From positions 1-41,127 of the IMG/VR virus record IMGVR_UViG_3300046385_000068: 41,127 bases of DNA; one strand, written 5' to 3'. The stretch is from a virus. Taxonomy: Duplodnaviria > Caudoviricetes. Below, piece after piece: positions 24,185 through 41,046 of this stretch (the stretch's first letter is position 1; every line of letters starts with the position of its first letter). Below the pieces are notes generated by a model. The model was not told the origin of the DNA. It saw nothing but the letters and a program-made list of their open reading frames with translations, and ran no database searches. The position numbers were made by a program, and so were the translations under genes.

Positions 24185-24199
24185 TCCCTATGATAGGGA
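24185..24199. repeat. 15-bp palindrome copy 1 (TCCCTATGATAGGGA)
   Basis: Read directly. Confidence 0.9.
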
Positions 24200-24858: not shown

Positions 24859-24873
24859 TCCCTATCATATGGA
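24859..24873. repeat. 15-bp palindrome copy 2 (TCCCTATCATATGGA, one mismatch)
   Basis: Read directly, between stop codon and terminator. Confidence 0.8.
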
Positions 24874-24876
24874 TTG

Positions 24877-24901
24877 ACCCCGCCAAGCGCGGGGTTTTTT
24901 T
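24877..24901 (+). terminator. Rho-independent terminator
   Basis: ACCCCGC/GCGGGGT stem plus T-run. Confidence 0.85.
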
Positions 24902-24952
24902 CCGCCTTCTTTTTATTCTTGATTTTGTTTTCACAAAATATTTTTCTTTAAA

Positions 24953-25330
24953 TACTATCATTACTATCATGCTGGCTCAGTAGTCGGGCAGGTGAGTAGT
25001 CAGGTAGACGAGTAGGCTAGTTTGTAAACTTAATCGAATGCCAGAAACTTGTTCAACTTAGTACAATGCCACAAACTTAACCGAATGCCACAACACACTT
25101 TTAAAAAACTCGGAAAAACCGACAAATCAATAAGCATAAGGGTTTGCGAGGTGCAAGGTGTATAATTTCTGAGTTATATAATATATGACTATTCTATAAA
25201 AATATATATAGTAAGACAATGTATATACATGAATTATTTTATTTCCAAACTCACCTTGGAAAGGGGTCTTTTTTCGGAAATTCCGCAAAATCAATGTTTA
25301 TAAGGGGGTATTTTCCTAATTTCCGATTTG
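24953..25330. repeat. Origin-like region: short direct repeats, 33-bp imperfect direct repeats, AT-rich core
   Basis: AACTTA-N4-AATGCCA x3; TCGGAAA-N7-AAATCAAT-N4-ATAAGGG at 25110 and 25274. Confidence 0.55.
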
Positions 25331-25382
25331 CACAATTTTTAAGCAGGTGTTTTTACCCCTAAAACAGCCAAATTCGACCTAA

Positions 25383-25397
25383 TCCCTATCATAGGGA
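25383..25397. repeat. 15-bp palindrome copy 3 (TCCCTATCATAGGGA)
   Basis: Read directly. Confidence 0.9.
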
Positions 25398-25497
25398 ATA
25401 AAACTTGTATTACAAACAAAATACTTCTTTACTACGCTTGTGGGTTGTGGCACACTACGCTTGTAGTAAATCTATAACACATTGTAAGGACAATTAA

Positions 25498-25842
25498 ATG
25501 ACCCAAAGAACCCGAAAATCACATAACAACGCAATCCTAAACATCAGATTGCCCGAACCAGTCCTAACCCAACTGACCACAATTTCAGACGCTCAATACA
25601 AATCTGTTAGCACAGTCGTGCGAGATTTAATCGTTCAGCACATCCAACAGAACTCAATCTTTTTGACCACACAGACACAAACCCAATCAACCCGAATTGG
25701 TAAACCCATGAGTGACAAAGAATACAAGTTTATGCGTGAACAAGAAATGCGTGGTGCATCACCCCTCCGACCTCAATCACCGAGCAATCAACAAACCCTT
25801 GAAATGCGACTAACACCTGATGAACTTTCTGAGTGGGAATAA
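25498..25842 (+). CDS. Ribbon-helix-helix (Arc/CopG-like) DNA-binding protein
   Basis: LNIRLPEPVLTQL...SVSTVVRDLI pattern; AAGGA RBS. Confidence 0.7.
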   Translation: MTQRTRKSHNNAILNIRLPEPVLTQLTTISDAQYKSVSTVVRDLIVQHIQQNSIFLTTQTQTQSTRIGKPMSDKEYKFMREQEMRGASPLRPQSPSNQQTLEMRLTPDELSEWE

Positions 25843-25844
25843 CT

Positions 25845-26054
25845 ATGCACCGCACCACAAAAGAATTAGCCGAACTAATCCACAAGTCCAAGCTAAAGAA
25901 GCGAGGGGTAAAACTATCACTTTTTGCTGAGATAGATGGGGAGGTTCGGTCACTTCAACAATGGGCTAAAGACTTCGACCTCAAATACTACACCGTGCTC
26001 AAACGCCACAAGAAGGGCGTAACTGGCAGAGAACTCATCAAACCAGTAGATTAA
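25845..26054 (+). CDS. Small HTH-like DNA-binding protein
   Basis: IDGEVRSLQQWAKDFDLKYYTVLKRHKKG, as seen in HNH-associated DNA-binding tails. Confidence 0.55.
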   Translation: MHRTTKELAELIHKSKLKKRGVKLSLFAEIDGEVRSLQQWAKDFDLKYYTVLKRHKKGVTGRELIKPVD

Positions 26055-26104
26055 AAACCACTAGCTCATGGTAGCTCACGCCTAACCTCACACCAAAACA
26101 TAGC

Positions 26105-26133
26105 TTGACAAACCTAGTATAAGCTGGTATACT
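26105..26133 (+). promoter_or_regulatory. Sigma70 early promoter
   Basis: TTGACA-17 bp-TATACT with extended TG. Confidence 0.8.
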
Positions 26134-26173
26134 TTAGTTATAGTTGGAAGTAGTACGTTTTGGTGTAGCCAAA

Positions 26174-26188
26174 TCCCTATGATAGGGA
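26174..26188. repeat. 15-bp palindrome copy 4 (TCCCTATGATAGGGA)
   Basis: Read directly. Confidence 0.9.
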
Positions 26189-26223
26189 ATAGCCCTTGAT
26201 GAGTAGCCAACCCTCTTTAACAA

Positions 26224-26520
26224 ACCGCATAAATGCCACTAAACAAAGTGGTGCAAGGTAGGCGTAGGTAGCAACAGTCATAAATAAGCGTGACGAGTTT
26301 TGTTGTTCGCCGAGCAGTAGCCTTGCGGTATCTAGTGTGTAGGTGGTTATTTGTATTGGGTTTATTTGTAGTGCATGCCGCACCGATAAGACCTTTTATA
26401 AATACCATGTGACCATACACATTACCGACCCACGCCCTAACCTCTTACAAGAACTGCGTTCATAGCAGAAGGCAAACAACATAGAAGATTTATAGAACAC
26501 TTGGGCAGCCGAGTGTTCAC
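26224..26520 (+). ncRNA. Candidate structured non-coding RNA / long leader
   Basis: Two long nested irregular hairpins plus 3' hairpin, downstream of a promoter, no plus-strand ORF in track. Confidence 0.5.
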
Positions 26521-26545
26521 TTAAGTTTTTTACAAGGAGAAGTAA

Positions 26546-26752
26546 ATGAGTAAGTACAAGCCGACCTGTAAGTTATGCGGTGATGAGTTCGCTACGGCGC
26601 GCTTCAAACTGGGCATAGCAGTATGTCTTGAGTGTGGTGATGCCATAGCAAAAGAACGGAAGTTCACAATCGTACCAATGAACAAGAGTAACTACATTCC
26701 AGTTACAAACTTTGAGATTCTTAAACAACTTAACCCAAAGAGGACAACATGA
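26546..26752 (+). CDS. C4 zinc-finger protein (DksA/TraR-like finger)
   Basis: CKLCG...R..LG...CLEC; AGGAG RBS. Confidence 0.65.
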   Translation: MSKYKPTCKLCGDEFATARFKLGIAVCLECGDAIAKERKFTIVPMNKSNYIPVTNFEILKQLNPKRTT

Positions 26753-26967
26753 ATACCCTAAACAAAATATATAACCCTGAGTGGTCAGCCCGTAAGCGTA
26801 GGAACCGTAATGAGTTAGAAGCCTTGCGTATGCTCGTCGAGCTAATGAAAGCTGATACGCCGAAGGAGAAGCGTAAAGTAATTAAGACTTATAACCCGTA
26901 CCACTACATATTTGGTAACAAACTTAACCCACGAAAGGAAGTAAGCCATGAGCAAGAATCAGTATGA
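26749..26967 (+). CDS. Hypothetical protein
   Basis: ATGA overlap, GAGG RBS. Confidence 0.6.
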   Translation: MNTLNKIYNPEWSARKRRNRNELEALRMLVELMKADTPKEKRKVIKTYNPYHYIFGNKLNPRKEVSHEQESV

Positions 26968-28159: not shown

Positions 28160-29236
28160 ATGGACTTATATAAATCAATCACATTGAAGCAGACCGCCGA
28201 GCTTATCCTAGCAGTAGGCGATAAGGTAACTGTACTTGCACAAGGCGAGATGGGTATTGGCAAATCATCTATCCTCAAGACACTTAAAGATAAATTAGGT
28301 GACAAGTACCACTACTGTTATGGTGACATGACCACTAAAGATGTGGGCGACTTTCTTGTACCTAAGATTCGCACCATTGATGGCACAGAGGTATGTAGCT
28401 TTATACCTAACGAGGAGTTCGGCTTTCACTTTGACAAGCCTATTGTGTTGATGCTTGACGAGATTGGCAAAGCACCCAAGGCAGTTATGAACGCTTGCTT
28501 ACGCCTGATGCTTGAACGACAGCTAGGTATCTATTCATTACCCAAGGGCAGTATTGTGTTCGCTACAACTAACCTAGCAGTAGAGGGTATCGGTGACAAC
28601 TTACCGCCTCATGCACGCAATCGTATCTCGGTAGTGAAAGTAGCTAAGCCAAGTGCTGAGGACTGGATAGAGAACTATGCTTTAGATAATGGCATCTTGC
28701 CTGAAGTTATCCTAGCAGTAAAACAATTCCCTCAGATGTTGCAGTCATTTGAAGATGTAACCGACCCCAAGGACAACGAGTATATCAACGACCCTCGTAT
28801 GCCTAGACCCGCATTTGTGACACACCGCTCACTAGAGAAAGCTAGTGACATTCTCAAAGCAACCAAGGGCATGAGCGATACTATCACCTCACACGCTCTT
28901 ATCGGCACAATCGGTGCAAGAGCAACTTACGACATGATGGCTATGGTCAGACTAGCTAACGACCTACCTGATTGGGATAGCATTGTTAAATCACCAATGA
29001 CCGCACAAGTACCTGATTCACCAAGTGCCGTATGTATGTTGGTCTACTCAGCCGTACAACGCATAGAGAAAGATTCAGTTAATGCGTGGGTTAAATACAT
29101 GAGCCGTATCAGTAAGGAAGCACAAGGCTTATTCGCCACAAGCGTGATGCGAACCAAGAAAGCAAGCACAGTAGGCACAAGCAAGGAGTTCATAACATGG
29201 GCTACCGACAACAACTATTTATTCGCTAGAGCTTAA
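28160..29236 (+). CDS. MoxR-like AAA+ ATPase
   Basis: Walker A GEMGIGKS, Walker B LMLDE, sensor ATTN, RNR. Confidence 0.85.
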   Translation: MDLYKSITLKQTAELILAVGDKVTVLAQGEMGIGKSSILKTLKDKLGDKYHYCYGDMTTKDVGDFLVPKIRTIDGTEVCSFIPNEEFGFHFDKPIVLMLDEIGKAPKAVMNACLRLMLERQLGIYSLPKGSIVFATTNLAVEGIGDNLPPHARNRISVVKVAKPSAEDWIENYALDNGILPEVILAVKQFPQMLQSFEDVTDPKDNEYINDPRMPRPAFVTHRSLEKASDILKATKGMSDTITSHALIGTIGARATYDMMAMVRLANDLPDWDSIVKSPMTAQVPDSPSAVCMLVYSAVQRIEKDSVNAWVKYMSRISKEAQGLFATSVMRTKKASTVGTSKEFITWATDNNYLFARA

Positions 29237-29251
29237 TCCCTATCATAGGGA
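29237..29251. repeat. 15-bp palindrome copy 6 (TCCCTATCATAGGGA)
   Basis: Read directly; abuts AAGGAG RBS. Confidence 0.9.
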
Positions 29252-29262
29252 AAGGAGATGTT

Positions 29263-30438
29263 ATGCAAACAACCATAAGTAAACTTACAGCAGAACAACG
29301 CATTGAACGCTGTCACATTGACCTGATGAACCACCCGAACTTTGTCGCATATAGTGGCATCTTGATGATTGGCTCAGTAAAGATATGTGACGATACACCT
29401 ACGGCTTACACTAATGGCAGAGATGTTGTGTATGGCAGAGAGTTCTTAACTAAGCTAACTGAACCTCAGTTGCGTGGTCTTATCTTGCATGAGAACAAAC
29501 ATAAGATGTACCGACACATAGCTACATGGCAACACTTATGGAAACAAAATGCTCGTAAGGCTAACATGGCTTGTGACTATGTAATCAACATAGAGATTGT
29601 TGATGAGGGTAAGGCTACTAACGGCTTTGTCGAAGTACCTGATGGCGGTCTTGTTGATGAGAAGTATCGTGGCATGGACAGTCAGACGGTGTTCAGTCTA
29701 TTACCTGATGAAGATGAACAAAGTGGTGGTCAGGGTGGAGGCTCGCTTGATGAACATGGTTGGGAAGATGGTCAGTCTATGTCAGCCGAAGAAGTTAAAG
29801 AGTTAGCCGAGGAGATTGATAACGCAGTTCGACAAGGTGCAATCCTAGCGGGTAAGTGTAACGGTAATCTTAATCGTTGCTTTACCGACTTGATGAGTGC
29901 CAAGGTCAATTGGAAAGAAGCCTTGCGTGAGTTTGTATCGTCGGTTGCCCAAGGTAAAGATGATTCCACATGGCGTAAGCCTAATCGTAGATGGTTGCAA
30001 CACAACATCTATATGCCAAGTACTATCAGCGAGAGCATGGGGTCTATCCTTATTGCCGTAGATACATCAGGCTCTATTCGTGACGAGGACATCAACAAGT
30101 TCTTATCCGAGGTAGTAGGCATCATGAACAATGTGAACCCTGAGCAAGTGCATCTGTTGTATTGGGACTCAGCAGTAGCGGGGCATGAGGTGTATGGCGT
30201 TGGAGATGGTGACAGACTAATGAGTTCTACCAAACCCAAGGGCGGTGGTGGTACAAGCCCTAGTTGTATTACCGAGTATATGAAAGCCAATAAGCTAACA
30301 CCTGAATGTAGCGTTGTGCTTACAGATGGTTATGTAGGTGGCGATTGGGGTGGCGATTGGTCTAGCCCTGTGTTGTGGGCAATCGTTGGCGGTTGTAAAG
30401 ATGTGCCGACTAAAGGCTCAGTTATTTATGTTGATTAA
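29263..30438 (+). CDS. Metallopeptidase-like (HExxH) plus VWA domain protein (DUF2201-like)
   Basis: TAYTNG, LHENKH, N.ACDYVIN; MIDAS DTSGS, GGGGT, LTDG. Confidence 0.85.
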   Translation: MQTTISKLTAEQRIERCHIDLMNHPNFVAYSGILMIGSVKICDDTPTAYTNGRDVVYGREFLTKLTEPQLRGLILHENKHKMYRHIATWQHLWKQNARKANMACDYVINIEIVDEGKATNGFVEVPDGGLVDEKYRGMDSQTVFSLLPDEDEQSGGQGGGSLDEHGWEDGQSMSAEEVKELAEEIDNAVRQGAILAGKCNGNLNRCFTDLMSAKVNWKEALREFVSSVAQGKDDSTWRKPNRRWLQHNIYMPSTISESMGSILIAVDTSGSIRDEDINKFLSEVVGIMNNVNPEQVHLLYWDSAVAGHEVYGVGDGDRLMSSTKPKGGGGTSPSCITEYMKANKLTPECSVVLTDGYVGGDWGGDWSSPVLWAIVGGCKDVPTKGSVIYVD

Positions 30439-40972: not shown

Positions 40973-41046
40973 GCCCCTTTAGTTAAATGGTATAACACTT
41001 GACTTGTAATCATGGATTAGCAGTTCGATTCTGTTAAGGGGCACCA
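40973..41046 (+). tRNA. trnT: tRNA-Thr (anticodon UGU), CCA encoded
   Basis: GCCCCTT/AAGGGGC acceptor, GTTA/TAAC D stem, loop CTTGTAA, TTCGA T loop, ACCA end. Confidence 0.92.

Follow-up and report, generated by a model that had tools for sequence, protein, structure and literature searches.

A conserved, boxA-led structured RNA family predicted downstream of an early promoter in freshwater tailed phages

The rrn operon of Escherichia coli is associated with a NusA/B/E/G-SuhB complex and carries RNase III stems. In phage T7, RNase III sites of the R1.1 type are placed just before the ribosome-binding site. boxA elements are described as acting in rRNA folding and in the service of long leaders that are non-coding (PMC4807359, PMC8632103), and the Nus factors as blocking Rho termination in long non-coding leaders, with their chief role in aiding rRNA folding (PMC4807359). 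The phage-encoded RNAs GOLLD and ROOL are described as structured, with a conserved core and variable parts, 600-800+ nt long, containing multiple pseudoknots and located in tRNA islands (PMC12286853).

A stretch of 41,127 nt from a partial tailed-phage genome (IMG/VR record IMGVR_UViG_3300046385_000068), hereafter the window, was analysed. Its positions 26212-26533 were one member of a structured phage RNA family, here called family A, with 56 distinct copies (Table 1). Analogues are known for parts of family A, namely in rrn boxA, RNase III stems and the large phage RNAs; the core has none. As in the E. coli rrn leader and spacer, a boxA of the same sequence precedes a long structured non-coding RNA, and a processing-like stem stands at the end; unlike rrn, family A is phage-borne, shows no boxC, and has an unrelated cargo of 250-490 nt followed by protein genes. 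With lambdoid nut/N and HK022 put it shares the place as first element after the early promoter and the order of boxA, then hairpin, but its core is much larger, downstream terminators are few, and relatives dispense with it. No N-like protein, as in the lambda system, was common to the family A loci within the flanks examined, and HK022 put is a factor-independent double hairpin of ~65 nt, whereas family A has a multi-domain core of 251-491 nt (boxA to junction) plus boxA. Like GOLLD and ROOL, family A is phage-encoded and structured, with a conserved core and variable parts; unlike them it is smaller, has no Rfam match, forms a chain of hairpins in which no pseudoknot was detected, and lies at an early promoter. 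The T7 R1.1 sites resemble its 3' stem in having two helical turns and an internal loop just upstream of a ribosome-binding site, but the predicted family A stem ends a long RNA and often has a U-tract.

Table 1 Features of the RNA locus and its surroundings in the window, with their positions, strand and main evidence.
Feature	Position	Strand	Evidence or remark
Sigma70-type promoter, extended -10 (TTGACA-17-TG-TATACT)	26105..26133	+	11/12 consensus matches; predicted start ~26140
Operator-like palindrome, copy 4 of 6	26174..26188	.	6 copies vs 1.16 expected by chance
rrn-type boxA, predicted NusB-NusE site	26212..26223	+	Window copy has C for the first G of the consensus
P1 hairpin after conserved AAAU; variable length, A-rich loop	26235..26252	+	3/6 pairs covary at E ≤ 0.05
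P2: 6-bp stem, internal loop, apical domain	26253..26326	+	Stem paired in 38/38
P3: long rod hairpin, variable sequence (domain 2 of the sequence-only reading)	26327..26429	+	z -3.4 for 26327-26430
P4 three-way junction: closing stem, AACC linker, 3-bp hairpin with NACA loop, CUGC/GCAG hairpin	26433..26474	+	Covariation
3' stem, 11 bp + 2x3 loop + 10 bp	26482..26533	+	Sole such hairpin on the plus strand of the window
Ribosome-binding site and first downstream gene (68-aa Cys-rich protein)	26534..26752	+	In most loci the RNA is followed by gene cluster c0 (42 loci)

The window comes from a lake-water phage. All 24 runs listed for the region were freshwater metagenomes; 13 of them contained at least half of the region's words, two being possible sources. 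Positions 25900-26800 were recovered in one contig of an independent run, with three differences and none within the RNA core; therefore, the stretch is not an assembly artefact. An RNA run gave one contig at 25692-25866 and no contig over the RNA itself, and such contigs show neither absence nor level of the RNA. The nearest deposited terminases, 52-57% identical to that of the window, were from DSL-LC04, 023Pt_psg01, HTVC027P and HTVC023P.

An earlier reading, made from the letters alone (the sequence-only reading), had proposed a novel early non-coding transcript of ~390 nt at this locus, and the motifs it listed for the region were all found in place. Folding of 26140-26530 against shuffles gave z = -3.6 on the plus and -1.7 on the minus strand, and the core (26235-26430) gave -4.5 and -0.6, with the plus strand favoured in both. 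The first 96 nt had no folding excess (z = 0.07). Among 273 scanned tiles of 150 nt, 26435-26584 ranked first and 26285-26434 eighth. By itself, folding was suggestive, not decisive; the homologues decided. No plus-strand ORF of at least 60 aa was present in the region, which contained two plus-strand ORFs of 40 codons and three minus-strand ORFs. Conserved small ORFs, a competing explanation named at the outset, were looked for and none was conserved: matches to the window ORFs in the closest relative were broken by stops and frame changes, and segment lengths varied regardless of frame. ARAGORN detected neither a tmRNA nor a tRNA in the RNA region. Rfam 15 returned only one tRNA for the window at the gathering threshold and nothing over the RNA at E ≤ 10, consistent with the claimed novelty, and 18 family A homologue loci had no match near threshold.

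The first nine syntenic homologues were reached through neighbouring proteins, with no RNA pattern used. A pattern of the 3' junction matched 58 viral, 44 metagenome and 5 genome loci; among these, the family profile gave E < 1e-10 at 30 viral, 39 metagenome and no genome loci. Nearly all profile matches began at the 5' end, a region outside the junction pattern. From the 56 distinct copies, L226 and L260 (cut by contig ends) and L229 (not parsed) were dropped, leaving 53, of which 38 were below 90% identity. Over the gapped alignment, these 38 homologues were 23-66% identical to the window. Distant homologues were sought by sequence profiles only. The junction-pattern scan of genome contigs gave five matches and no homologue, and therefore no prophage or host was found. 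A blastn search of the window region and one homologue against 50,697 deposited phages gave no match. In the four nearest deposited phages by terminase (up to ~19 kb around the gene) and in phiEco32 (66000-77554), the profile matched boxA words only. Exact-word scans with the variable RNA parts were also tried, and their matches were at chance level. Within the flanks examined, no protein family was common to all RNA loci, or tied to the RNA alone across contexts.

Covariation was tested by G-test with APC in a 96-column core of 38 sequences, with the pattern-imposed AACC and CUGC/GCAG columns excluded. The 13 top-scoring of 4,560 column pairs were all proposed base pairs, and nine pairs reached E ≤ 0.05 when 200 simulations along the family tree served as the null; the alignment anchors came from conserved motifs, and the P2 and P4 registers were partly picked for pairing. 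In an unfitted MAFFT alignment of 21 short members, 95.4% of the cells paired, compared with 84.8% in shuffled and 32-45% in slid registers, and 15 of 33 pairs had changed on both sides. There was no pseudoknot among the top covarying pairs. These homologues support the sequence-only claim of a novel early phage ncRNA, showing it to be conserved, structured and encoded on the plus strand; its transcription is predicted.

From 5' to 3', the element is a chain of boxA, AAAU, P1, P2, the rod P3, the three-way junction P4, an A/C-rich linker and the long 3' stem. In P2, four of the six stem pairs and one apical pair covaried at E ≤ 0.05. Its internal loop (26259-26267 opposite 26311-26319) is non-canonical, with nearly invariant columns, and its apical domain is variable, with 7-239 nt between anchors and a UAAGCG-type loop motif in 26 of 38 homologues. 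A GGCG/CGCC pair had been drawn in this region. It was complete in the window copy only (1/38), and 26267-26268 covaried with 26310-26311 instead. The long P3 stem was also found in the homologues inspected; its basal pairs were kept in 92% (MAFFT, 21 members) and were not significant in a fixed register. P4 was present in nine of nine members found before the junction served as a search pattern. A pair of its small hairpin covaried at E < 0.005, and the closing-stem pairs were kept as GC, AU or UA in 38/38. Three of these parts were missing from the sequence-only reading: the rrn-type boxA, the internal loop that hardly varies, and the 3' junction, which is conserved.

Two further structural ideas were rejected. 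A long-range helix closing the 5' and 3' ends, predicted by RNAalifold in the 21 short members, had no double changes and competes with the covarying P1 and P4. Likenesses to SRP helix 8 and twister needed pairs that were broken in variants, and Rfam had no match. ACA triplets recurred in the unpaired loops and linkers of family A, including the 3' linker; ACA is the site of E. coli MazF.

The near-consensus promoter claimed earlier was confirmed (26105-26133), and a similar one lay 60-175 nt upstream of boxA in 34 of 38 homologues by pattern, with a -35/-10 pair seen by eye in the other four. The adjoining palindrome (26175-26187) was indeed the fourth of six copies, which lie close to promoters and gene starts, at 24186, 24860, 25384, 26175, 27223 and 29238. 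The palindrome is a different one in each related phage, and we infer that it is the DNA site of a phage regulator. Candidates for the palindrome binder are the product of the ORF at 25498-25842, whose fold looks ribbon-helix-helix-like by eye, and that of the ORF at 25842-26054 (weak HNH-family match). Palindromes lie within the RNA element in many copies, often at RNA hairpin tips; in L157, L217, L180, L211 and others, the tips of P1, P3 or the 3' stem hold the palindrome of the phage. At those tips, the same letters may be both DNA site and RNA stem.

The boxA consensus GYTCTTTAANA, as given in 10.1101/091223, was exact in 20 of 38 homologues and had at most one mismatch in 34 of 38, at a fixed place. 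The two variants common in family A also occur in E. coli, where the record has them as boxA of the rrnB leader and of its spacer. Because the window copy is mismatched and the window contains 14 boxA-like words with one mismatch, the case for boxA rests on its fixed position across the family. It is followed by a spacer of 9-11 nt and then by P1, which has an A-rich loop and is ~16 to 80 nt long. Four exact boxA copies were also observed on the minus strand of the cultured coliphage phiEco32 (L278:6788-8731), in and near an ORF-free gap that is unlike family A except for boxA.

At the 3' end, the sequence-only reading had a 10-bp hairpin before a T-run. The hairpin is there, but the full structure is longer (Table 1), and the T-run lies inside its lower helix. 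A 3' stem of at least 19 bp was found in 35 of 38 homologues, typically of ~11 bp, a small internal loop and ~10 bp, and it ended 0-34 nt upstream of the ribosome-binding site. RNase III substrates are described as spanning about two helical turns; an internal loop is allowed, in which case only one strand is cut and a 3' hairpin remains as protection (PMC1540722). The geometry of the 3' stem agrees with such a substrate, and its two turns were kept even in members with no U-tract. A U-rich stem base was present in 27 of 38; of the 11 members scored as lacking it, two have a U-run masked by a longer predicted fold. In the window, the U-rich base lies 7 nt past the GC-rich stem. We predict an RNase III site and/or a weak intrinsic terminator, with plain termination as possible as cleavage given the frequent U-rich base.

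The slot behind the early promoter is not always filled by family A. In relatives with a placed early promoter, it held family A, family B, family C or a short leader; left out of this count, as cut short or with no placed promoter, were L002, L003, L006, L015, L018-L020, L022-L024 and most of the 42 loci lacking the marker gene. boxA was present in all 17 distinct family B loci and all three family C loci, and absent from all 16 distinct loci with short leaders (78-147 nt). It thus went with the long RNA rather than with the genes that follow, and relatives carried the same early genes with no long leader. In a tree of the downstream 292-aa protein, read with L135 as family B, family C fell among the family A carriers (support 97/94), and five short-leader phages fell within the family B clade (100/99). 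From this distribution and tree it follows that long RNA and boxA were acquired, exchanged and lost as a pair, with the early genes retained, in few events rather than dozens, as kin share labels. Because the two come and go together over constant early genes, boxA is read as serving the RNA, and the RNA as accessory cargo.

Family B is a structured, boxA-led RNA of ~510-740 nt with invariant motifs of its own, found in the same slot of sister phages (L107, L109, L110, L112, L118, L120, L121, L123, L124, L127, L130-L135 and L140; for example L133:4415-4964). It has one 7-nt word in common with family A, and no Rfam match was obtained in the nine loci scanned. Family C is a boxA-led leader of ~600 nt (L089:4483-5112, L090, L093). 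Its carriers are closer to the window than most family A carriers, and the 3' stem is the only part common to families C and A. Eleven family B and C loci together gave no relevant Rfam match.

What the family A RNA does can be approached from these patterns. To the reading that we prefer we give about an even chance: a conserved structured non-coding RNA gene with an rrn-operon-like layout, made early and set free to act in trans as a decoy or scaffold for a host protein. Host polymerase would start at the early promoter under control of the operator. boxA would then very probably load NusB/NusE together with NusA, NusG and SuhB, which would shield 400+ untranslated bases from Rho and aid folding. 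The 3' stem would probably make the RNA end, through an RNase III cut and/or partial termination, and leave the next ribosome-binding site free. In the weakest step, the invariant loop and the junction would bind a host protein, which the RNA might titrate or reorganise for takeover or counter-defence; the variable arms would be tolerated decoration. Protein binding is suggested because unpaired and non-canonical letters are invariant amid freely changing helices, and cargo status because three different RNAs fill one slot and relatives lacking a long leader keep the same genes. Of the four functions offered by the sequence-only reading, decoy or anti-defence is the one preferred here. Against action in trans, every copy of the RNA comes first behind the early promoter, with genes downstream of it, like nut and put sites. 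The Nus and RNase III rules used here are borrowed from E. coli and may not be those of the host.

That same placement, seen in all members, is what speaks for a cis-acting processive antiterminator, another of the four suggested functions, in which boxA and the core would stay on the polymerase and take it past the 3' stem and then past terminators further along the early operon. The order of boxA, short spacer and hairpin with A-rich loop resembles that of lambda nut, although P1 varies widely in length, and swappable elements in one slot resemble the exchange of nut and put. We consider antitermination possible but doubtful, as short-leader relatives keep the same genes with neither boxA nor RNA, the core far exceeds put in size, and the loci have no N-like protein in common within the flanks examined. 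There would also be little to pass: intrinsic terminators were rare with or without the RNA (within up to 6 kb downstream, in 1/8 family A loci and in 2/11 loci scored short, the latter including the family B locus L135), and in 22 of 30 loci the next operon had a second promoter ahead of it, ~0.6 kb on. A riboswitch or protein-sensing attenuator is improbable. It would use the alternative pairing of 26261 with 26432 proposed earlier, set against the junction stem, to control the 3' stem and first genes, and the invariant loops could make a pocket. The pairing is indeed fully possible in 27 of 38 homologues, and in the window the alternative fold (-96.8 kcal/mol) lies 1.9 kcal/mol above the best (-98.7). 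However, it had zero covariation, was broken in 11 of 38 homologues and where the competing junction stem changed on both sides, and overlaps neither the 3' stem nor the ribosome-binding site; downstream genes vary, and no Rfam riboswitch matched. The idea of a switchable leader thus found no covariation support, and the alternative pairing is possibly a folding intermediate.

As a special case of the decoy reading, the RNA could mimic 5S rRNA and bind L25 (perhaps L5/L18) or the ribosome, which we hold to be quite improbable. L25 is described as binding 5S loop E (PMC4408793), and the invariant loop resembles loop E in being symmetric and non-canonical, its 3' strand equalling that of E. coli loop E plus one inserted base. 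Some junctions resemble loop C, and a G.G to A.A double change fits the register. Unlike loop E, the family A loop has an extra mid-loop pyrimidine pair and a different, partially matching 5' strand, and there is no 5S fold. The likeness is post hoc and marginal: for the two loop strands, 2 and 5 of 71 rRNA slices gave scores as high, the resemblance of the junction weakens with two other 5S rRNAs, and Rfam 5S gave no match. The compact, sequence-invariant junction and loop might also suit a new self-cleaving or self-splicing ribozyme, but no Rfam ribozyme or group I/II intron matched over the RNA, the top covarying pairs held no pseudoknot, and an RNase III-like stem would be redundant; this is very improbable. 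Least probable of all is a DNA-level element or a set of hidden small genes. Operator palindromes do lie inside many copies, but strand-biased folding with G-U pairs, compensatory changes and the lack of any conserved ORF largely refute it.

Literature searches found no description of the family A RNA. The part of the Fremin 2023 supplement (PMC10690425) that was searched contained no motif match, and part of the RNA may be among the 10,006 unnamed candidates of that study. The function of GOLLD and ROOL has been a mystery for years; with family A, the role of such RNAs becomes directly testable, as it offers a small invariant core, natural deletions (apical domains of 7-239 nt), natural knock-outs (sister phages) and two swap-partner RNAs. 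If the trans-acting reading is true, phages use the host rRNA Nus complex, with no N protein, to make RNA effectors. More broadly, and only tentatively, widespread freshwater phages might keep a dedicated early-promoter slot for interchangeable large RNA genes of at least three unrelated folds, made with borrowed host machinery for rRNA transcription and processing. Family A would then be an RNA-only effector of takeover or counter-defence, one that captures a host protein by imitating a host RNA such as, possibly, 5S loop E.

Several minor observations were made elsewhere in the window. A MoxR-like ATPase followed by a 391-aa protein (28160-30438) is kept across the family; by eye, the latter looks like a metallopeptidase/VWA partner, and its PHROGs label is HNH. 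The tRNA nearest to the RNA is 14 kb away. A tRNA gene at 40973-41046 was called Thr(tgt) by ARAGORN, and the Rfam alignment centres its loop one base off. In the ORF-free gap 24860-25497, three short direct repeats (25026-25093) adjoin an A+T-rich stretch, possibly an origin or genome-end region. A direct repeat of ~11 nt at 25427-25470, upstream of the ORF starting at 25498, is possibly an autoregulatory site and is kept in L061.
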